Origin: Felis catus
Taxonomy: Eukaryota
DNA length: 64,000 nucleotides
NCBI RefSeq assembly: GCF_018350175.1
Contig: NC_058368.1
Span: 89,840,001 to 89,904,000, forward strand
Direction of reading: 5' to 3'
Shown: piece after piece, positions 8,386 through 57,960 of the stretch
Layout of the letters: each line of letters begins with the position of its first letter
Position numbering within the stretch: position 1 is the stretch's first letter
Notes under the pieces: model-generated
What the model was told of the DNA's origin: nothing
Seen by the model: only the letters and a program-made list of their open reading frames with translations
Database searches by the model: none
Translations under genes and position numbers: made by a program

Positions 8386-8716
8386 TTTTTACAGAGAAGT
8401 ATCTGTAAATTGAGAAAGTGCCTGTAAACAGAAGCCTAGAGAGGTTCAAAGTAACTCTCCAAAATTTCAGAGCAATTAAGCATCATTTGTAACTGAAAAA
8501 CCAAAACAAGGCAAAACAGAATCAACCTAAATGTCATTCAATAAATTGTGGAATAGGCATACAAAGGCACTTGGAAAAAATTAACTACTTGGTTTATTTA
8601 CATATGATGAATGAATCTCAAAAATAACACTAGGAGGAAAAAGCGAGTCACAGAAATCTTTCAGGGGGAAAATAGAATATATATTATTGTCCGTAACCTC
8701 TCTGAGGATTCTTCTC

Positions 8717-8909
8717 ATTTTTTTTTTCTTTAAGTATTCAGAGAGAGACAGAGAGAGAGAGAACCAGCAGGGGAGGGGCACAGTGGGAGACAGAGGATAC
8801 AAAGCAGCCTCTCCTCCCCCCCCCAGGTGGGCCTCAAACTTACAAGCTGTGAGATCATGACCTGAGCCAACATCAGACACTTAACCGACTGAGCCACCCA
8901 GGTGTCCCC
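8717..8909 (-). mobile_element. Can-SINE with internal deletion
   Basis: TSD cctctctgaggattct (8697-8712) / cctctctggggattct (8908-8923). Confidence 0.88.
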
Positions 8910-9484
8910 TCTCTGGGGATTCTAGTTAGCGTTTTCCTTTCTGACCCCTTGCCCACTTCCAGAATCATCCTTGCGTCTCTGGGAGTCCATGCAGGCCTCT
9001 GTTTCTCCATCTCTCCCTTTCAGGAAGCTGGCTTTCCTCACGTGTCCAGTAGCTCTCGTTCTTCCATTCACATACAGGGGAAGAAACAACCAGGATATTG
9101 GGGGCAGAGCTTGCTGGCTGACAGCCATCACTACGGGGTTGACTCTGTCCCCGGAGCACAGGGTTGCAGAAAGCATCTGCACCTGGCCTAGGCACCCGAA
9201 CCCCCTCTCGGCTGGGTGGCCTTGGGGTCCCCAGAGAATGCTGCTGCAGCTCAATTCACCTACTCCCTATTCTTCTGCAGAAATCTTTAGCTGTTGACAA
9301 CCCCCCCCTTTTCTTTGTATTGGGGGCTCATAGGGCCTTTATTCCTTTACTCTCATGTTAATAGTGTCTTGGGAAAACAGTAGATACCCAGCCAATGCAG
9401 TCTGCTCGGTCAGTTACCACTCAAGTGCCTGCCTTCCAGCTTTTGAAATGGTATTACTGCTCTTCTCCGCATGCTTGTGCATTT

Positions 9485-9548
9485 GTGTATGTGTGTGTGT
9501 GTGTGTATGTGTATGCCTGTGTGTGTGTGCGTGTGTGTGTGTGTGTGT
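9485..9548. repeat. Imperfect (TG)n microsatellite
   Basis: Direct reading. Confidence 0.9.
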
Positions 9549-9853
9549 ACCAGTTGTTAAAATGCTGATTTGACCCCCCCAGCTCTGGTTGGTTCCTTGA
9601 GCCTCCAAGTGTTCCCCACAGGCCTCACCTCTTCCCTGAAACCCCCCAGGCACCCCTAATGATCCAGAAACTGATGGGGTAAGCCCTGGTTTAGCAGGGA
9701 GGGGTCTCTAGAGCCCACTCTAGCTCCAGGGCCAGCCTCTACCCTGGGTGGCCATGGTCGTCTTGCCTTTGACATTCTGTGTGTGTCACAGAAGGGAGAG
9801 TAACCACGTGCACAGGGCTGATTCCTCACCTCTGGTTTGAAAATGCTCCCTGG

Positions 9854-10145
9854 GGGGCGCCTGGGTGGCTCAGTCGGTTAAGTGTCCGACTTCGGCTCAG
9901 GTCACGATCTCGCGGTATGTGCCCACTCTGGGAGTGGGCAAGGGGTCAGAAAGGAAAACGCTAATTAGAAACGGGTATGTGAGTTCGAGCCCCATGTCGG
10001 GCTCTGTGCTGACTGCTCAGAGCCTGGAGCCTGTTTCAGATTCTGTGTCTCGCTCTGTCTCTGACCCTCCCCCGTTCATGCTCTGTCTCTCTTTGTCTCA
10101 AAAATAAATAAATGTTAAAAAATAAAAAAGAAAAAAAAAAGAAAA
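9854..10145 (+). mobile_element. Can-SINE carrying a 52-bp internal foreign insertion
   Basis: TSD gaaaatgctccctggg at 9839 and 10146; insert 9922-9973 flanked by duplicated ggtatgtg. Confidence 0.92.
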
Positions 10146-10210
10146 GAAAATGCTCCCTGGGTGATTTTGCCTACCAGGCAGATTTATAAGCCATTGGCAC
10201 GAATGACAGC

Positions 10211-10395
10211 GCTGGGGTTCAGACAGACCTGGAATCTAACCCTGATTCCTATACCCTCCAGGTGTGTGATTTGGGAGCCATTACCTCCACTCTCTGAGTC
10301 TCTGTTTCACCATCAGTGACATGGGGATTTGGATCCCTCGCACAAAGGGTTGTTGGAGATATCAGAAGAGATACTGTGTGTAGCAAGCCGATGAT
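10211..10395 (+). mobile_element. MIR
   Basis: 'cagacagacctgg...tgtgtgatttggg...ctctctgagtctctgtttcaccatc...atgggga' MIR core. Confidence 0.75.
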
Positions 10396-10459
10396 CCTAG
10401 GGCTAAGGAGGGAACACATTGGGAGCCTTCCTTTAGGAACGCCATGTAACTCACCCGAA

Positions 10460-10476
10460 GGCCACCAGGTGGGGCA
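10460..10476 (+). promoter_or_regulatory. CTCF-like motif (one core mismatch)
   Basis: GGCCACCAGGTGGGGCA vs core CCRSYAGRKGGCRS. Confidence 0.35.
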
Positions 10477-11179
10477 ATTGGCATCAGTGACCCAGAGCAG
10501 CAGCATTAAAACTTGGGTGGGCCTCTGCAGCTCCTGAGCTGGTTTTGTTTGTTGTTTTTAATTTTAAAATAATGGCTTCCACAGGCCGGCAGAATCTGAA
10601 TCTCTGAGGTGGAAGCTAGGATTTTAGTCCACACTGTGAAACTCTAAGACCACTGATTTAGAGCACTGGGTAAGGGGGACCAGGCCTCCCTCCCTCCCTC
10701 CCCCTGGAGTGGGGCCTCACCCTTGGCTCTCCCTTGCTTTGGCCCAGGACCTTTGGACATGCTCTCTGGGACTGATAGGATGACCCTTTTAGGGTCCATT
10801 TCCCAGCTTGGATCTTGGCAGTCCATCCAGAATCTGCTCTGTGGGCATCCCCCGGCCCCATGCACAGGGTCCATGGTGAGGAGAGCCTTGGACCCTGCAG
10901 CCTGCCCTTGGCCAGTGGGTGGAGGCCTGGACCCACCCTCCCCCTGTTGTCGACTTTGGCCAAGACGACTGGATAAGTCATACTGATCATGGAACATTTG
11001 GTTTCTCCGGGGAACGCCCATCAACAACAGGAACCAAGGGAACATTGGTTGAGGAGGTGGCTGTAACAATCTAGGTTAGAGATGATGGGACCTGGTAGGA
11101 GGAGAACACTGGGGACAGATTCAGGAAGTATGCAGGATACAGAGGGGGAAGTAAGAGAGGAGAGAAAAGCCTAGAAAAG

Positions 11180-11328
11180 CTGCACTCTTCCAACTGCGTT
11201 CTTCCCCAGCACCTGGGGGCTTGTCAGAAATGCAAAATCTCAGGCTTCCCAAGCCTGCTGAGTCAAAACCACATTTTAACAAGACCTCCAGATGATTTGT
11301 ATGTACCTTAAAGTCCGAAGGTACTAGC
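11180..11328. mobile_element. MER5A-like hAT relic
   Basis: 'cacctgggggcttgtcagaaatgcaaaatctcagg...cattttaacaagacctccagatgatt'. Confidence 0.75.
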
Positions 11329-11949
11329 CCTGGTCCAGAGTGCTGACTAGGTTTCTGGCTGTTTTGACAACACCCCTGATAGAGGACACAGGAGGAACAG
11401 GAGCGGGGCAGGTGGTGGGAGAGACTGTGTTTCATTTGGGCCCCTGGGATTTGGGGTTTCCTAAGGACATCCAGGTGCACTATCTGCGAGGAGCTGGGCA
11501 TGTGCCTGAGCCTGGGGGTGGGAGGTGCAGGTGTAGGAGCCAGGAGCACCCCTGTGATGACTCAAGTCCCAAATACAGATGAAATCCCTCAGGGAGGGTG
11601 GGTGGCAGTGAGGGTGTCTGGGTGGCCCAGCCAATATGTGATGGAGTGGACTTGAACTCAGCCCTTCTGACTCCGATGAGAGCCAGGACTTGCCTGTGGT
11701 TCAGACCAGCGTCCTTGGTGCCACAGGGACTCTCGGGCTCCTGCCATCTGTCCAGAGCCCCTCCTCTGAGTAGCCAAGCCCTTGTAACAACTTATCTACT
11801 TGTCATCTCCACCCATACCTTGACTGGCATCTCACGCCTGTTTTGCCCCATCTATTCCACAGAACTCGGGGCCTTCTTCCCCCTGCTCCCTGAGGCTGCT
11901 GTCTCAGCTTCCCCTCAGTGGATGCAGGCTGTACCTGGGCATTCCCCAT

Positions 11950-12580
11950 CCTCACCCCCCAAGACCTGTGAATTCTGCTCCCCAAATCCATCCACATTTT
12001 ATTCCCAGCATTCCTTGCCCTGATCCAAGAACATATGTAAACTAGATGACTTCCATGACCCCAAAGTGGTATCCTGGGCTGCCGTGGTGACCTCTCCAAT
12101 CCACTCTGCCCATAACAGCCAGAGCAAGTTTCTCAAAAGCAAATCAGTTAGCACACACCTCTGCTAGGAACCTACTGGTGGCATCCTGAGGCTCCAGGAA
12201 CAAAGCCAAACCTGCCACCAGGCTCTCAGTGTATGAGATGCAGGGCCCAGTAACCTGTCACACTCTGTCTGGGCCCTCCCCACTGTGTCCTCTGACAGAC
12301 TCATGCCTTCCTTCACATCCCAGGTCTACTGGGGGAGGACTGAAGATCACAACAGGCTCCTTCCCTGAGTCCCCAGCTCAGAGATGCCTTGCCTCTTAGC
12401 TCTGTATTTAATGCATAGAGCCTTTCCTTCATCCCAGATCTCAAAGTCACCACGGTGTGTCTGCTCCTTCCGCCTGATTATTGTCTGTCTTTCCCCACAA
12501 CTATCAGTTCCACATAGTGAGGGCAGTGGGTGCCTACCATGAACTTGTGTTACTGCTGGTATTGAGTTCCAGGAAATCCA
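11950..12580 (+). mobile_element. Degenerate L2 fragment
   Basis: 'acagccagagcaagtttctcaaaagcaaatcag' and downstream text resemble the L2 3' region. Confidence 0.45.
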
Positions 12581-13562
12581 GAGAAATTCAGGAGACACTT
12601 CCTAGATGGCCTTCCTGAGATAAAGCTGGAAGAGGGGCAAAGCTCTGGGTTTGGGTAAGCTGTAGTTTGTAAGTAGAGACTCGTAGGCAGAGTCAACTGT
12701 GAGATGAAACTGGAATGTATTTATGGAGAGGGGAGAGACTGACAGGTCCAAATGGGAGTCATAGAGAATGCCTGGAGACGGGTCTGGGACGTGAACACTA
12801 AGCAAGGGTGATGGGGCCGGGCCCAGAAATCCCCAGAGGCCTCTGAGCAGAATCCAGGCAGTACTCCTAAACCATCTGCTCTGGCCCTGAGGCCTTGCCC
12901 CCTGACCAACCCTCCCCTCTGGTCCAGTCCACAGCCAGACTCTGCCCTTCCTGACCTGCTGCGCCCCTATCTGAGCCCACATCGGCTTCTCTGCCCTGAC
13001 TGCTGTCAGACTTTGTCAGACCTCCCATTTTCCAGATCAGTAATTACACTTACCCCCAAGGTTTGCCCTTTCCCATCTGGGGCCCATCTGGCCCTTCCTC
13101 CACCCACCCTAAGCTACTCCCAGCTAGCTCCCGCCTGCCAGGGATCCTCCAGTTTTCTTGTCTGTAAACTGGGGTGAGGGCGTCTCCTCTCAGGCAATCA
13201 GTGCAAAATGCTTCCTCCACCTTCCCCACTTCAAATCTTCTAGGCCAGTAGGGAGGAGACCTGCTGGGGCTGACCTGTGACCAGAAAATGGTTTCCACTG
13301 ACCCTGAAATTTCACCAGAGACACACCTTTCTTCTTGCACAACAGCTGGTGGGGTGTGGCTGCCTTCGTCACCCTTTCCCCTTAGCTGTGTCCATTCTTA
13401 TCTTGAGTGTGGGGCCCCAGGACACCTCTCTTACTCGTCTCAGGCCACCTCCAATCTCCAGGAAAGGCAGAATGTGCCAGTTGGCTGTGGGCACCGCCCA
13501 GAGCTTCCCAGCTGTGGCTGGTGCTGAAGGAGCAAGATAGGAGGGACAACCCACTCCACCCT

Positions 13563-13582
13563 GGAAAGCCCTGGGGAATTCC
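13563..13582. promoter_or_regulatory. Adjacent NF-kB-like sites
   Basis: GGGGAATTCC at 13573-13582 fits GGGRNWYYCC; GGAAAGCCCT at 13563-13572 reads AGGGCTTTCC on minus. Confidence 0.35.
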
Positions 13583-14133
13583 AAGATCATCATTGGCTCT
13601 AGCCCACGCGGTGCGCCCTGCCTTCCCTACACCACCCTGGCCTTGCCCACAAGCACCCTCAGCTGCTCCCCACTGTCTCACCCCCAGGCCCAGTTCTGTC
13701 CTCTGGAAAGCCTCCCTGATGACCCCAACCCCCAGGGCTCTCTCCTCCTGAGGATGGTGCTCCACTGAAAGCAGCACCTGCAATGGATAACATGGAGCCT
13801 TACACAGAATTTCTTTCAGTGATTCGGTGCTTTGTGGGGTGTGGGGTCTCGCCTTTACACCTTACCAAGTACTCAGTGCTTGGCGGCTGCCATGAGCCCC
13901 TTCTCCACCCACTACACCTCTCCAGGGTCTCCTGCTCTCAGGAACGGATCAGGGACACTCGTGAGCAGCCACGTTGGCCTACGCGGCGCTGAGGGATCAT
14001 TTGGGAACTCTCGACCCTCCAGTCCTGCTCCCCTGGGAGTGGATTAAGCCTAAAATATAGAAGTTTGAAGCCTGAGAGAGAGGTTGATCAGCCACAAAGC
14101 CAAGGGGCAAGAGGCAGGACAGAGAGGCTCCAA

Positions 14134-14151
14134 AGCGCCCTCTGCCGGCGG
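14134..14151 (-). promoter_or_regulatory. CTCF binding motif
   Basis: Minus strand CCGCCGGCAGAGGGCGCT matches core CCRSYAGRKGGCRS exactly, inside a locally CpG-retaining patch (~13950-14220). Confidence 0.65.
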
Positions 14152-14581
14152 CCTCTCATGGACCGGCGTATATCGCACTGAAAATGAACCGGTGGAAGTT
14201 TGGTTTGCAGGGACCAATCGGGCCTGGAGCTGCAGATCTAGGGATCACACCCTGGCCCAGGCACCTTCTCCAAACTCCATGTCACTTTAGGGGAACCGCC
14301 TGGGAGACCCGTTGGCCAACTCACATTTCAACAGTGCATTTAGCCTGCAAAGCATCCTTTCATAGCTGTCCTAACCCTAGTGCAGGCGAGTAAACAGGAA
14401 TTAGGGCCCCTCGTTTTGAGATCAGAGAGATTGAGACCGAATTCTCCAGTCTCGAGTAACAGGCATGTCTCCCTGTCCTGCTGCCCCCCCATTGCCTCTT
14501 TCAGCTGGGGAAGGTGAGGAAGGTCCTGTGGCAGGACTTGGTTGGCTCAGTCTGATCCCTACAAAGGAACAAAGACATTGG

Positions 14582-14622
14582 GCTGGGGCTGAGGCAGGTG
14601 CTGGGGCTGAGGCAGGTGCTGG
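14582..14622. repeat. 18-bp tandem duplication (gctggggctgaggcaggt)x2
   Basis: Direct reading. Confidence 0.85.
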
Positions 14623-16359
14623 AGAGGCCCTGTAACCCAAATGGCCCACCCGGTGGCCAGGTGCAGCCCCATAAACAGATCTGGGCAATCTGTTGGTAGT
14701 GGGAATGCGGTGGGGGGTGGGGGGGTGGGCAGTGCCAAAGGAGGTTGTAGCCAACGTGGGCATCTTTTGGTGAAGAATTTGCTCTCTCTGCCCACCCAGC
14801 ATCCACTCCCTCTTATGGTATGTTTCCCTTAGGGATCTCCCCTGTCCTACTCTCGGGATATGTGGTTCTATTGAGATCGCCTTTTCCAGCACCCGCGGGC
14901 ACAGGGCCCAGGCCCAAAGGCTGACTCAGAGAATTCCATTCCCTGCCAAAGTTATTGCTTCTGAGGTGGGCAGAAATTCAACCCCAGATGAAAAGTCCCA
15001 CCACTCAGGGACTTTTGTAGGGACTTTTTCCTGTGGATTTGTTAAGGAGGGCACATGAAGCACTGGGGACTCCTTGAGTGTGAAGCCAGGGCAGAGCTGG
15101 GAGAGGGTGGGATGGGGAGCAGAGGCACAAGCCTGGGGATAGGGTATCAACCACTAACCAGGCAATGTCTTTTATCTTGGGTCAAGTCTGTGCCCCTGCC
15201 CAGAAGAGTCCAGCAAGGCTCAGAGCCCAGTGGGCTGAAGCCAGAGCTTAGATGTCCTATAGTTATGGGAATTCACAAGGGAAGTTCTAGGTGGAGGCCG
15301 AGTGGACAGAAAGGTGGCCTTGAAGTGCGTGTGTGTGCGCACATGAGCAAGGGGGAGGGGGAGGGAGAGTCAGGGACTTGAGCCAAGAAATGAAGGAATT
15401 TTCTGATGGAACCAGAAGTCCTAAGCAGGATGCTGGAGAAGTCTAGGGAGTCTTCACAGTTAGGTACCAGGATCTCCCTCTCCTGCCAATGCTCAGATCT
15501 GCCACTAGGAGTGGGCAGGAGAGGGGCCTGCAGGAGGGAGGCAGCAAGGTGCAGAATGAGACTGGGAACATGGCCCCAATGCTTTCCTGAATAAATCAGC
15601 TTTCTCAGGGTCTACAGGACTGCTCATTCAGCGAAGACTCCGACTCACCCCGTCCCTGGAAGGTAGTGGATGCAGGAGTCGGATCAGACGTAACCCTGCA
15701 TTTCAGGTCTAGAATGGGAAGAGGAGGTGGGTCTGGCCCTCATGTCAGGTGCCCAGCACTCCTGTGTCCCCAGGCAGCAAGGCCTGCTTAGCCCAGGCCC
15801 CTGCAGGGGCCAGCAGCCCCACAATGAGCACCAATTTCTACCGTTCTGCTGCAGAAGGGACAGTCTCTAATCTCAAGGAGGCCCAGTCTAAAGGCAGATG
15901 TGTGGGCCCTGATATGTGAAATGGTCAGATGGGCCCGGAGCCAGGGGAACAGCAGAGGGACCCTGGGCTCCAGAGCTGGGGGTCGTGGCCCACTCAGAAT
16001 CTGGGGAGGAGCTGAGCACAAGTTGTGACTCCCACGCCCTCTCCAGCTGGCAATCCTTCAGGCCATACCAGGTTGCCCGGGGGCCTCACCCACCTGGCCC
16101 AGGGACATGAGGAACTGGGCTGCAGATGGCCTTGGTAACCAGCTGTGCCAACATGCTGACGTCTGATCTGGGGCGGGTCTAGGAGGCCCCTGGCTTGTCA
16201 GATAACCGAAAACAACAGCCTGAGGGGGAGCAGAGGTCTTCAGGGGCTGCTGGCTTTGGGTTCAACCCCCAGAGGACTCCTCCCTAGGCCCCTCCTGGTC
16301 CTCTCCACCAGCCAGCAGAACAGCCAGGACACCAGGTCACAGCTTCCTGGAAGAGATGC

Positions 16360-16827
16360 CCCATCGCTGCTGTGACAAATTATCACAAACTGGTGACTTA
16401 AAACAATGCCAGTTTAGTCTCTCATGGTTTTGGTGGCCAGAAGTCTGAAATCAGTTTCACTGGGCTGAAGTCAAGGGGTCAGCAGGCCTGGGTCCCTCTG
16501 GGTGTGCCAAGGGAGAATCTGTTCCTAGCCTGTCCCAGCTTCTGGTGGCTACAGGCATCCCTTAGCTTGTGACTGCATCACTCTGATCTCTGGTCAGTGG
16601 TCACATCACCTTTTCCTCTTCTATGTCTAATCTCTATCTGCCCTTCCTCTTTATGAGGTCACTTGTGGTTGCATTTAGGGCCTGCCCAGATGATCCAAGA
16701 TAATGTCTCCATTTTAAGACACTTAATTGAATCACAGCTGCCAAGACTCTTTCCACATAAGGAAATGTTAATAGGTTCTAGGGATGAGGATATGGGTATC
16801 TTTGGGGGCTATTACTCAGCCTACCAC
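16360..16827 (-). mobile_element. MaLR solo LTR (MLT1C/D-like)
   Basis: 'gctgctgtgacaaattatcacaaactggtgacttaaaacaa...ggccagaagtctgaaatca...tattactcagcctaccac'. Confidence 0.85.
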
Positions 16828-16907
16828 CCTCCCCTCTGTGTGGAGACCTCTGGTCCTGGAGCTGGAGGGTTGCTCAGCACAATGGGCATTAAAGAATGGG
16901 TTCCTGA

Positions 16908-17133
16908 GGGGCACCTGGGTGGCTCAGGTTGTTAAATGTCCAACTTCGGCTCAGGTCATGGTCTTGAGGTTCGTGGGTTTGAGCCCTACATGGGGCTCTG
17001 TGTTGACAGCTCAGAGCCTGGAGCCTGCTTTGGATTCTGTGTCTCCCTCTCTCTCTGCCCTTCCCTGCTTGCCCTCTGTCTCTCTCTCTCAAAAATAAAT
17101 AAACATTAAAAAATTGTTTTTAATTAAAAAAAA
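16908..17133 (+). mobile_element. Can-SINE
   Basis: Full body; TSD agaatggg. Confidence 0.9.
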
Positions 17134-18629
17134 ATAGAATGGGCTTCTGGGAGGAGGTAGCTCCCAGGGACACACCCACCCTCCAGTTGGGGGTGACCAA
17201 GGCCTCCACCCCACAGGCTGCCTGAGAGACCCTGCAGCATGGCAAACCAGGCAGCAGCAATTCCAGGCTGAGTAGTTTCCTGGTGTGTGGCTGAAAGTAC
17301 TTGATGCAGAGCCTTGAAGAACGTGACCCTCACTCTCCCAGTGCCATGGGGTGGTTGTTAGGGATGCAGACTCCCAGGCCCAGGAATCCAGATCTTTCAC
17401 AAGCTCCCAGGGGCTGAGGTGCTAGTGAAGTCAGAGGACTACCTCTACTGATGAACATAGGGCTCCCCTGAGTACCATTGTCTTGGGGGCTGCTTGTGTT
17501 CAGAGATTTCTCCCTCACCTCTGCCAACCAGGAACACGGGGGGTCCTGTGAGCTTTGGGGGACAGGGTGAGTCTAACAGACCCTCCCCAGTGTCAGGTGA
17601 GCATCAATGTCCACATTTTTACAGAAGTGTCCCCAAGCACAGAGCCCTCAGACCTCATCAGAGACAAGCCAATTGAGGTGGAAAGATCTCCACTATACCC
17701 CCAGAGACAGGGTCTGACCACTGTCAGGGTGGCTTCTCCCATCCTGGGCAGCCCTGTTGCTGGGAAGTGGTCTTCTGAAAAGAGAACACATTGGCCACGT
17801 TTTGGCCTGGGTGCCACCCCAAAGGATACTCAACTGTCTCTTCAGTTTGGTTGCTTACAAAGCCCAGATGCTCCCCATGGCCCCATGAATATCAGTGAAG
17901 GGTCCACCCCATGCCACATGTGTGGGAGACACCTCTGCAAACAAAGGGGGCAGATCTGTGGCCCCCTGGAGCTAGCCTCTTGGGAGTGGGTGTTTAGGAC
18001 TGAGCTCCTCTGCGTCTTCATTGGAGCAACAGGGATGAAAGCCCACCTCACGACCAGGACCAAGCAGGGCAGAGGACCTGGAGGGCTATCCCTCATTAAC
18101 TTCCATTTCTACTTGCCCTCCCTTTTCCAGGCTGGAGTCTGCTCCCAAGTGCTCAGGGGTTTGTCAGCAGCACTCTTGAGTCCTAACACAATATCACCCT
18201 CCTCACCGTGACCTCATCCACAACTGGTCACAAGTCAGCTTCCTGTACATGAGAGAGCAATGTCTCAGATGGGACAGGTGTCCAGGAGTTTATGTGGCTT
18301 TACCTCTGACTCCTGCAAGGGGCCAAGTGGGTATCCATTGTTTCCATGGGCACCATCATCACCCTTCCCTTTATTGCTCACTCTCTTCCCCATTCCCCAT
18401 GCTAGCTTCTGTCCTGGGCAGGGGAGACAGTAAGTGGAAGGAGACTTCCCAATAGGGCACAGGCCATGAAGCCGGAGGAGACTCTACCAGCTCAGGGATG
18501 TGGTGTTTCTGGACCTCAGCCACAAGAGACACCACTCAGGGCACCTCCATTCTTCCACAACACCGCGTTTGTGCTATTCCTCTTTCTTTTAAGGAAATTC
18601 TGCTATACGCACTGCTTCGTTCTGGCACA

Positions 18630-18990
18630 TGATCTGCAGATCTGCTGACCAGCTGCCACACACCAGGCATTGTTCTTGGCACTAGATATATAGCAGTGAA
18701 GGACCCAGACAAAGACACTGCTCCAGGGAGCTTATATTCTAGGGTGGGAAGGGAGAGACAGGACAAAAACAAGCACATGGGGACAGACACAGGAGCCAGG
18801 TGGTGGAGAAACAAAAGGCCAAGACCATGAGCAGCAGTTGCAAGAGAGAAGACAGGAAAAGTTTCCATCGAGAAGGGGACATTTGAGCAGAGACGGAGGG
18901 AAAGCAAGAGAGGGAGCCATTCTATCTGGGGAAGAGCCTTCCAGGCAGAAGGAGGCCAAGAGCAAGGCCTAGAAGTGGGTCCGTTCTTAA
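18630..18990 (-). mobile_element. L2 3' end
   Basis: 'ccaggcattgttcttggcactagatatatagcagtgaa...ggagcttatattctag' is typical antisense L2. Confidence 0.8.
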
Positions 18991-19373
18991 CTATGCCTTT
19001 GGGTCACCTGCAAGCCCCGTACCACCACCATCAGCCACAGAATTAGGCCCTTGACACCTGCTGGTTCAGTCATGGTACCCATCCCTGTGTGCATGCTGGG
19101 GGTGGGAGAGGGGGACAGGACTTTCCACCTAAGCCAGGTCAATGGGAGCTCCTTTCATGTGGAGCAGAGAGACATGGCTTTCCCTCCAGTCCTAGAACAG
19201 AGGCTGCCATGTCTCCACCCAGGGGAGAAGCTGTCTGCATGAACAAAGCCAACACATGCTCAGAAACTGATGGAGGAAAGGGGGAAAGGGGATGGCTGAT
19301 TCCTGTCATGATTCCAATTTTCCTAAAGACCCCTTTCCTCTGCCCTTCCTAATTTGATCTGGCTTCTGTGTTG

Positions 19374-19545
19374 TTATATACATATGATATATATGATATA
19401 TATATCATATATGATATATATGAGACATATGATATATATGAGCTGTGACACACAGAGCCCGATGCGGGGCTCGAACCCATGAATCATGAAATCATGACCT
19501 GAGTTAAAGTCAGACGCTTAACCAACTGAGCCACCCAGACGCCCC
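19374..19545 (-). mobile_element. Can-SINE 5' half (19441-19545) joined to an AT-rich (ATATATG-like) microsatellite
   Basis: SINE head ends at 19545; 3' half absent, AT repeat at 19374-19440 in its place. Confidence 0.8.
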
Positions 19546-19604
19546 TATATTTTTTATTTTCTGTTTATTACAAGGCTTTGGCATCTTTAAAAAAACAAAA
19601 CAAC

Positions 19605-20087
19605 AACAAAAAACCTTTCTGGCCAGGGAGACTATTCCTCCTGGGGCAGGCCAATTCTCTGAAATGGCAAAGGGCCCAACACAGAGAGCATGCCTTTGAT
19701 ATGCAAACTCCAAACCAACTGTTCGAGAGCCAGAGCTTCTCTACCTGGTCCCTAAAGCCCAGGAGACAGTGTTCCTCTGCCTTAATCATCCCAGGCCTGG
19801 TGACCCACTACTGGGGACCATCCCTGTAGCTTAAAGCCAAACCAGCCCATCCTAAACTGTCCACCTTGCTCTGCCTTGTCTTTCCCAAGGAAACCCCAAG
19901 AAAGACTCTGGCCCAGATTTCCCACCTCACTCTTGTCTTCTGCCTCCTGAGCACGCTGGTCTCTTTCCCATGTGGTTCTGCACAGTGTACCCTGCCTCCT
20001 GTCTCTAGAACCAGTGAGAATAATCAACTTTATTTTCCTGAGCCTCTTTTGGGACTCCTCTGGGGTCACCCCTGACTGACCATCGTG
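19605..20087 (+). mobile_element. ERVL-class solo LTR (MER73/MER74-like)
   Basis: 'gcctttgatatgcaaac', 'ttcccaaggaaacccc', 'actttattttcctgagcc...ggggtcacccctgac' recall that family. Confidence 0.5.
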
Positions 20088-20739: not shown

Positions 20740-21103
20740 TTTTTAACATTTGTTCATTTTTGAGAGTGAGAGAGACAGAGCATGAGCAGGGGAGGGGCAG
20801 AGAGAGAGAGGGAGGGACAGAATCCGAAGCAGGCTCCAGGCTCTGAGCTGTCAACACAGAGCCCCACGTGGGGCTCAAACCCATGGTCATGGCTCAAGAC
20901 CATGACCTCAGCTTAAGTCCGACACTTAACCAACTGAGCCACCCAGGCGCCCCCAACTAAATAAAATTTAAATAAAAATAAAGAGGGGCACCTGGCTGGC
21001 TCAGTCAGTAGAGCATGTGACATGCTTGATCTCAGAGTTGTGAGTTCAAGCCCACGTTGGATGTGGAACCTACTTAATTATAAACAAACAAACAAATAAA
21101 TAA
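20740..21103. mobile_element. Can-SINE (-, 20740-20954) and short SINE (+, 20984-21103)
   Basis: TSD aactaaataaaatt around the first; head ggggcacctggctggctcag for the second. Confidence 0.85.
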
Positions 21104-35267: not shown

Positions 35268-35910
35268 ACTATAGGCTGAATGTTTGTGCCCCGTCGCCCA
35301 ATACATACTCTGAAATCAAATCTCCAAAATGATGATATTTAGAAGGTGGGCCTTTAAGGAAACTGTTTGGAGGAGGAGGGCCTTCATGAAAGAGATTAGT
35401 GTCTTTACAAAAAGAAACCTCAGAGAATTTGCTTGCCCCTTCCGCTCTATAGTTTGATAAGGTTATATAACCTTACATATAACCATATGTAAGGTTACAG
35501 TGAAAAGATGATGGTCTATGAACCAGAAAGTTGGGCTCTCAATGTACCTGGGTAACTCAGTCAGTTAAGCATCTGACTTTGGCTCAGGTCATGGTTCGTG
35601 GGTTTGAGCCCTGAATCAGGCCTCTGTGTTAGGTTCAGAGTCTGCAGCCTGCTTTGGATTCTGTGTCTCCATCTTTCTCTCTGCCCCTCCCCCATTCATG
35701 CTCTGTCTCTCTATTTCTCTCTCTCAAAAATGAATAAACATTAAAAAAAATTTTTTTAAAAAGAAAGTTGGGTTTTCACCAGACACCAAATCTGTCAACA
35801 CCTTGATCTCAAACTTGTAGGTTCTATAAATTGTGAGAAACAAATTTCTCTTGTTTATAAGCCACCCAGCCTGTGGTATTCTGTCACTGAGGCCCTAATG
35901 CACTAGGAAA
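35268..35910 (+). mobile_element. MaLR solo LTR (MLT1A/MST-like) with a SINE (35541-35760)
   Basis: 'ctataggctgaatgtttgtgccc...tgtgagaaacaaatttctcttgtttataagccacccagcctgtggtatt'. Confidence 0.85.
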
Positions 35911-56639: not shown

Positions 56640-57419
56640 GTTTTGGGGATTTTTTGGTGGTTTTATACCTTAATTTGACACAGAATGTTTAGTTCCCCTC
56701 TGTAGTAACTGTCTATGGATTTTTTAAAATGTTTATTTATTTATTTTGTGAGAGAGAGAGTGAATGGAGGAGGGGCAGAGAGAGAGAGAGAGAGAGAGAG
56801 GGAGAATCCCAAGCAAGCTCCACACTGTCAGTGCAGAGCTGGATGCGGGACTCTATCTCATGAACCAGGAGATCTTGACCAGAGCCAAAACCAAGAGTTG
56901 GAAGCTTAACCAACTGAACCGCCCGGGGGCCCTTGTCTGTGGATTTTTGAAAACGATGACAAGTACTTAAGTAACCAATGTATAGAGCTTGTTTGGTGAG
57001 TTTTCATCCTCATTACTTTTTCTAAACAACAGCCCATGGATATTGAATGGGACATTTCTTATTCCTTTGTCCCTGACAGCTTTGCTGAGCCTGGTGTCAG
57101 TGTGAACATCTGGTGTTCCCTTATCCTTCACGGCAAATTTCCAGATCTCTTTGAGTGCCCAAGGGACACGCTTCTTGAAACCCACTCCATGGATGTGCTT
57201 GTGAATGTTGATGGTATATTCTCTGGTCACTACCTCATTGATGGCAGAATGGTCCTCTTTCTTCTTGCCATCCATCATTGTAGATGCCATCTAACATCAG
57301 GTGACAAGGAGGCTCAGAGTGGAGGACAAGTGCCAGTCAAGTCCTCTCTCCAAGCTCAGCCTCATGCTGCTGCACTTTGGGTGCTTGCAGGTGCCAGGAC
57401 CCTGAGGCCTCAGCTGTGG
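56640..57419 (-). pseudogene. RPL31: Processed (retro)pseudogene of 60S ribosomal protein L31
   Basis: ORF 56967..57290 [27 protein letters not shown]...NKLYTLVT is RPL31. Coding part is intronless; premature TAA at a Tyr codon; C-terminus (KNP-TVTTEGN*) continues across a SINE to the stop at 56689-56691; then 3' UTR and a degraded T-rich tail. Confidence 0.95.
56726..56932 (-). mobile_element. Can-SINE inserted in the RPL31 retrocopy
   Basis: TSD tgtctatggattttt / tgtctgtggattttt. Confidence 0.92.
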
Positions 57420-57960
57420 AATTTCTTGCAAGGCATTTCCTTAGCAACAATTTCTCCCAATTTTTCTTCATCCAAGGAAGTACTTCACTTTCACTTTTGG
57501 AAGATTATCTTGCAGAATATAAAATTCTATATTTGTGGGAGGGGCAGTTTTACCTCAACACTCTAAATATTTCTCTCCACTCTTCTTGCTTTGTGTGGTT
57601 TCTGAGAAGTCAGGTGTTAGTCTTATCTTTGCTCCTCTATAAGTAAAGTATTCCTCACCCCCTTCTTGTTTCTTTCAATATTTTTCTTCATGGTTTTTTT
57701 TTTGGAGGGGCAGAGCACGTGTGAGTGGGGGAGGAGCAGAGGGAGAGAGAATCCCAAGCAGGCTCTGTGCTCAGTGAGAGCCCAACACGGGGCTTGATCT
57801 CATGACTGTGAGATCATGACCTGAGCCAAAATCAGGGTGGATGCTGAGGCAACTGAGCCACTCAGGCACCTTGTCTTAGCTTTGATCTTCTGCAGTCTGA
57901 ACATCATATTTGTAGTTTTTTGTTTGGCATTATTCCTGCTTAGTGTTCCCAGATTCATTA
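57420..57960 (-). mobile_element. Old L1 ORF1-region host sequence with a SINE (57693-57871)
   Basis: Continues the L1-like text that ends at ~56635. Confidence 0.6.

Follow-up and report, generated by a model that had tools for sequence, protein, structure and literature searches.

Two SINEs lie head to head at this locus, SINE1 on the minus strand and SINE2 on the plus strand, and SINE2 is interrupted by 52 bp flanked by an 8-bp direct repeat. The window, by which we mean the whole 64,000-nt stretch of Felis catus DNA analysed, is SINE- and L1-rich mammalian DNA that contains no N. We take its SINEs to be of carnivore or felid type, and SINE1 to be an older carnivore-type element. The 5' end of SINE2 is intact, and the two copies of its TSD agree at 16 of 16 positions. 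The features used throughout are as follows.

8697-8712, plus strand: left TSD copy of SINE1, 15/16 identical to 8908-8923
8717-8909, minus strand: SINE1, internally deleted and inverted relative to SINE2, with its 5' end at 8909
8842-8909, minus strand: arm of SINE1 complementary to SINE2 at 9853-9920 (84% over 68 nt, with a 27-nt exact run)
8908-8923, plus strand: right TSD copy of SINE1; the donor starts in its last 4 nt
8920-8963, minus strand: main donor of the insert (42/44, E 6.1e-16); piece C of the insert corresponds to 8957 down to 8920, with a 32-nt exact run at 8957-8926
8950-8957, plus strand: template of piece A, the left hairpin arm (8-nt exact match to 9920-9927)
8955-8986, no strand assigned: donor quasi-palindrome, a weak structure of about -4 kcal/mol with arms 8955-8963 and 8978-8986 (8/9 complementary) and a 14-nt loop
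8977-8986, plus strand: possible template of piece B, identical to 9926-9935 over 10 nt, which would explain the G at 9932
9854-10145, plus strand: SINE2, the element that hosts the insert; it has a 16-nt TSD of its own, and an L1-endonuclease-like site lies at its 5' end
9914-9921, plus strand: left 8-bp repeat copy, in which 9917 and 9918 are private substitutions
9920-9940, no strand assigned: left-junction hairpin with a perfect 9-bp stem and a 3-nt loop, from folding and longest-match parsing
9922-9973, plus strand: the 52-bp insert, comprising pieces A, B and C and 3 nt (9971-9973) without a convincing template
9974-9981, plus strand: right copy of the 8-bp duplication, identical in sequence to the left copy

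The insertion is real in the assembly, which agrees with all the coordinates that an earlier note on this DNA had given for the insert, the 8-mer repeats and the donor. Two copies of the 8-mer GGTATGTG, at 9914-9921 and 9974-9981, bracket the 52-bp insert; in the window background, 8-mer direct repeats with spacings of 55-65 have a frequency of about 1e-4 per position and spacing. The reverse complement of 8920-8963 reads as 9927-9970 with 42 of 44 bases identical, the two differences between insert and donor falling at 9932/8958 and 9965/8925. When the insert was searched against the 64-kb window with BLAST, 8920-8963 was the sole non-self match (E 6.1e-16, with the runner-up at E 0.13). The donor lies about 960 bp from the insert and, as the note had described, begins inside the right TSD of the SINE at 8717-8909, in the last 4 nt of 8908-8923. 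No second copy of the donor region (8910-9250) was found in the window, where it gave only matches of 19-22 nt to one short stretch (E of at least 0.017). A self-comparison of the window (matches of at least 25 nt and at least 90% identity, leaving out those with a SINE on both sides and those ending in the SINE2 tail) listed 26 pairs. Four of these lie within 5 kb, and the three besides the insert and its donor were judged by eye to be pieces of multi-copy repeats. The start of the donor, 8920-8925, spans the endonuclease-like site of SINE1, and base 9965 of the insert suits that motif better than the donor base does; the insert, rather than the donor, may retain the ancestral base at 9965/8925.

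Longest-match parsing decomposed the insert into three pieces that derive from both donor strands. Piece A (9920-9927) equals 8950-8957 in forward orientation and has TG in common with the end of the target. Piece B (9926-9935) overlaps A by 2 nt and equals 8977-8986, also forward and at 10 of 10 positions, its template being the far arm of the donor quasi-palindrome. Piece C overlaps B by 3 nt and runs from 9933 as the reverse of 8957 to 8920, exact for 32 nt and then with one mismatch. Microhomology of 2, 2 and 3 nt is present at three of the four junctions, while the right junction has none. This parse leaves one mismatch and the three bases at 9971-9973 without a template; a 5-nt template at 8934-8930 for these right-junction bases was considered and rejected, the match being at chance level. 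The earlier note had described a single inverted copy with two mismatches. The inverted match stands; one of those mismatches is accounted for by the 10 nt identical to 8977-8986, which the note had missed. As a third template, piece B is a candidate that depends on one informative base, the G at 9932. A later C-to-T change in the donor (from an ancestral C at 8958) or correction within the hairpin would also explain this base, equally well.

At the left junction, 9920-9928 pairs with 9932-9940 to form a hairpin of -9.9 kcal/mol. The perfect stem had been noted before, with one pair fewer than the nine present. Shuffled sequences folded equally well as a hairpin in 5 of 200 cases on the plus strand and 1 of 200 on the minus strand, and a comparable stem was present within 10 nt at 79 of 20000 random window positions.

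The host element itself provides the means of ordering the events. A systematic search of the window for SINEs returned 67 candidates, two of which are SINE2 itself; of the other 65 rows, 14 matched SINE 3' parts in reverse orientation and were dropped, leaving 51 other copies. Of 167 sites compared with its 8 closest copies, 7 (4.2%) have a letter private to SINE2, among them the A at 9917 and the T at 9918. None of the 51 other copies has this A (0 of 65 rows if the 3' hits are included), with an upper 95% bound of 5.7%; the T at 9918 is a CpG-type change and is present in 14 of the 65 rows. The 8-mer variant was likewise absent from a hand-picked alignment of 29 other SINE copies. Because both copies of the 8-mer hold the same two private substitutions, neither of which is seen in the 8 closest copies, the duplication appears to post-date SINE integration: most likely, the 8-mer was duplicated after SINE2 had inserted and mutated. 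The putative pre-insertion allele is here modelled on uninterrupted paralogous SINEs only (n = 51), and the source element of SINE2 could already have borne both substitutions. Differences between donor and insert, counted as 1-2, correspond to 1.1-2.3% per lineage with a range of 0.03-8.2%, which is too wide to date the event. Two of the seven private letters, at 9917 and 9918, are adjacent and both within the duplicated 8-mer, and they are possibly a single double substitution tied to the initiating lesion.

Indels were also seen at the corresponding SINE position in other elements of the window. A minus-strand SINE with its 5' end at 20953 carries a small insertion, similar in appearance to a tandem duplication, at the SINE position where SINE2 holds its insert, and the SINE copy at 35541 has a deletion there. 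This SINE position may be indel-prone.

We read the structure as a germline mutation scar, a templated insertion made by multiple template switches after integration of the SINE, and assign this reading a probability of about 0.84. Faulty replication or break repair most likely lies behind the patch. SINE2 would have inserted and started to decay before the event occurred. A free 3' end within SINE2, from a stalled fork or a resected break, would then have primed about 1 kb away, and two or three template switches at 2-3-nt microhomologies would have followed around the donor quasi-palindrome, with one strand change or snap-back. Read on the plus strand, TG would have primed at 8950 with copying to 8957, CT would have shifted synthesis to 8977-8986, and AGT, or a fold-back of the new strand on its own ACTC, would have flipped synthesis to the other strand, which was copied from 8957 to 8920. 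Three extra bases would have been added before synthesis re-entered at 9914, rejoining the original template 8 nt behind the exit point, and this rejoining would account for the duplication of the 8-mer. The mirror-image order on the minus strand fits equally well, the direction not being readable from the product. Either order would require both donor strands, or one strand and a snap-back, to be available, as in a bubble, a D-loop or an uncoupled fork. The sequence alone does not name the enzyme, which may be of MMBIR type or Pol theta type, and we slightly favour switching of the replicative or BIR type rather than a simple fill by Pol theta. The insert gives no sign of function and presumably has none.

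The event works like the complex MMB-TI, templated insertions tied to microhomology-mediated break-induced replication, described in human genomes (PMC8421209). The likeness extends to an insertion of at least 25 bp, several local templates in both orientations, a non-genic setting, microhomology at the switches, a quasi-palindrome and return to the original template. Of the curated germline calls in two human genomes, 33 of 103 in one and 26 of 99 in the other are multi-template events; quasi-palindrome classes are the commonest, and templates were sought within 100 bp (PMC8421209). At the present locus the template is nearby and partly inverted, and the switches have the microhomologies given above at three of four junctions. 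The differences are that this event is felid and that its donor lies about 960 bp off, beyond the 100 bp within which the human templates were sought (PMC8421209).

Resemblance to Pol theta TINS is more partial. Insertions of this class (PMC7165422, PMC11292364, PMC11541566, PMC7454005) share with our locus the priming and resolving microhomologies of 2-3 nt, an inverted piece made by fold-back and iterative rounds. Pol theta can extend stem-loops from two terminal pairs (PMC11292364), and pieces A (8 nt) and B (10 nt) and the hairpin suit such synthesis, while piece C (38 nt) exceeds the typical tract. Pol theta templates are typically within 30 bp and first tracts rarely exceed 10 bp (PMC7165422), template distances peak within 20 bp (PMC11541566), and distant templates do occur, with insertions of 2-35 bp (PMC7454005). 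With templates for TINS typically lying within 20-50 bp of the break, the tract of 38-44 nt from about 1 kb away is a departure, and the donor at about 960 bp lies outside the 50 bp used as an operational test (PMC7165422). A further difference is that the product here is a duplication without deletion. The earlier note had proposed a locally templated inverted insertion of the Pol theta or template-switching kind; the templated inverted insertion, the fold-back junction and synthesis by template switching or end joining are borne out, while plain Pol theta action is weakened by a 38-44-nt tract copied from about 960 bp away. The MM-BIR and Pol theta labels overlap, because Pol theta has been linked to initiating MM-BIR (PMC13065848).

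Three other origins were weighed against a post-integration scar. The earlier note had allowed for a template jump during integration of the SINE. Reverse transcriptase would have switched from the SINE RNA to nearby DNA as its template and, after a fold-back, returned to the RNA 8 nt before its exit point. The divergence between donor and insert permits an event as old as the SINE, but the source RNA must then already have borne both substitutions, and the variant word is found in 0 of 51 window copies. The duplicated bases differ from those of the 8 closest copies and of the 51 others, which stand in here for the true source element. Such a jump also requires a return to the same RNA, and SINE2 has its intact 5' end and 16/16 TSD. 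With the two private substitutions present in both 8-mer copies and absent from the 8 closest SINEs, we do not favour this origin and consider it improbable. An artefact, whether an assembly or a library chimera, would be consistent with the junctions being known from the assembled sequence alone. In 20 of 24 sequencing-run rows (10 studies, same organism), 0.90-0.93 of the region's sampled words were present, but the insert accounts for about 4% of those words, so these shares are silent on the presence or absence of the 52 bases. Against a chimera stand the difference between insert and donor at 9965, the exact return to the SINE with an 8-nt duplication and the ordered multi-piece structure; a consensus error producing all of this seems unlikely, and we give a chimera very little weight.

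Capture by L1 of a local RNA or cDNA fragment, as a class 1 templated sequence insertion, is equally hard to credit. A target duplication of 8 bp is of a length usual for L1, and the insert is flanked by one. Class 1 TSIPs are defined by a TSD, a poly(A) and a TTTT/A site (PMC5110952), and the last two class 1 features are lacking here: the longest A run of the insert is 4 and its longest T run 2, and neither end of the 8-mer fits an endonuclease site (TTTT/A-like or TT/AAAA-like), whereas the TSDs of SINE1 and SINE2 each show one of the TT/AAAA-like kind. The pieces, moreover, come from both donor strands. Our locus resembles TSIPs (PMC5110952) in having a template elsewhere in the genome, with a target duplication as in class 1 and the look of a repair patch as in class 2, and differs from them in its local rather than distant donor. 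The event is not a class 1 TSIP.

A separate possibility would modify the post-integration reading and is compatible with it. In single-stranded DNA, the inverted SINE1 and SINE2 may have formed a stem-loop that stalled synthesis near the end of the stem and kept the donor no more than about 80-120 nt away from the free end, a suggestion we hold only tentatively. On either strand, the duplex between the 5' parts of SINE1 and SINE2 has an energy of about -65 kcal/mol. In the reconstructed allele lacking the insert, almost all bases pair as far as about 9911-9913, and the pairing loosens over the 8-mer and beyond it. A distance of 11 nt separates the stem base from the start of the donor, for which the chance with a random donor is 1.2-2.3%. 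SINE1 has the longest exact match to the SINE2 5' part (27 nt, rank 1 of 51), a length reached by 16 of 1275 pairs. The geometry was, however, noticed post hoc in one case, 7-16% of trials with a random donor end place it close to a SINE end or a microsatellite, and 35 of 52 SINE copies have an inverted neighbour within 1.1 kb. The donor is also out of register with the stem, the intervening 70 nt being missing from the insert, and a distance of 1 kb fits the reported resection range of about 2 kb (PMC7615360) with no stem required. Gene conversion between SINE1 and SINE2 was considered as the origin of the 27-nt exact run; the alignment gives no clear direction, and conversion is not claimed. 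At 20953/20985 and 31290/31327 the window has two further pairs of SINEs facing head to head, whose 5' ends are separated by just 32 and 37 nt.

Elsewhere in the window, GC content is 51-56% at 10000-20000 vs 34-48% in the rest, and that interval may hold a promoter or exons, of which none was identified. None of 22 ORFs, picked from those listed near the site and elsewhere in the window, matched Pfam. One open frame on the plus strand, at 57000-57566, had no Pfam match and reads by eye as what we take to be the antisense of a ribosomal-protein processed pseudogene. Patterns for the SINE variant and the SINE site gave 0 hits in metagenome contigs and 0 in viral contigs; a general SINE motif also gave 0, so these searches are uninformative. 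At 35450-35497 short inverted repeats form a chain whose last element, at 35468-35497, is a hairpin with a perfect 13-bp stem and a 4-nt loop; the setting looks by eye like an old LTR remnant, as we presume it to be. The chain is probably a second, short-range snap-back scar.

A single neutral scar matters little; its class numbers in the tens per human genome (PMC8421209). The insertion is a tidy natural example of an already known class of templated insertion, and its host SINE serves as an internal clock, in that common private substitutions put the events in order. That inverted SINE pairs steer donor choice, with a 68-bp stem whose one end marks the insertion site and whose other end marks the donor bringing 1 kb down to about 100 nt, is a doubtful proposal at this one locus. 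Among the papers listed by full-text searches on inverted Alu or SINE elements together with templated insertion, no title or abstract opening states such a donor-steering rule, which does not prove its absence. If true, it would be an unrecognised rule of donor choice for germline templated insertions in SINE-dense genomes. Were the inverted-SINE geometry shown for many events, the way repeats are arranged could be tied, by a rule open to testing, to the choice of donor when templates are switched in the germline.
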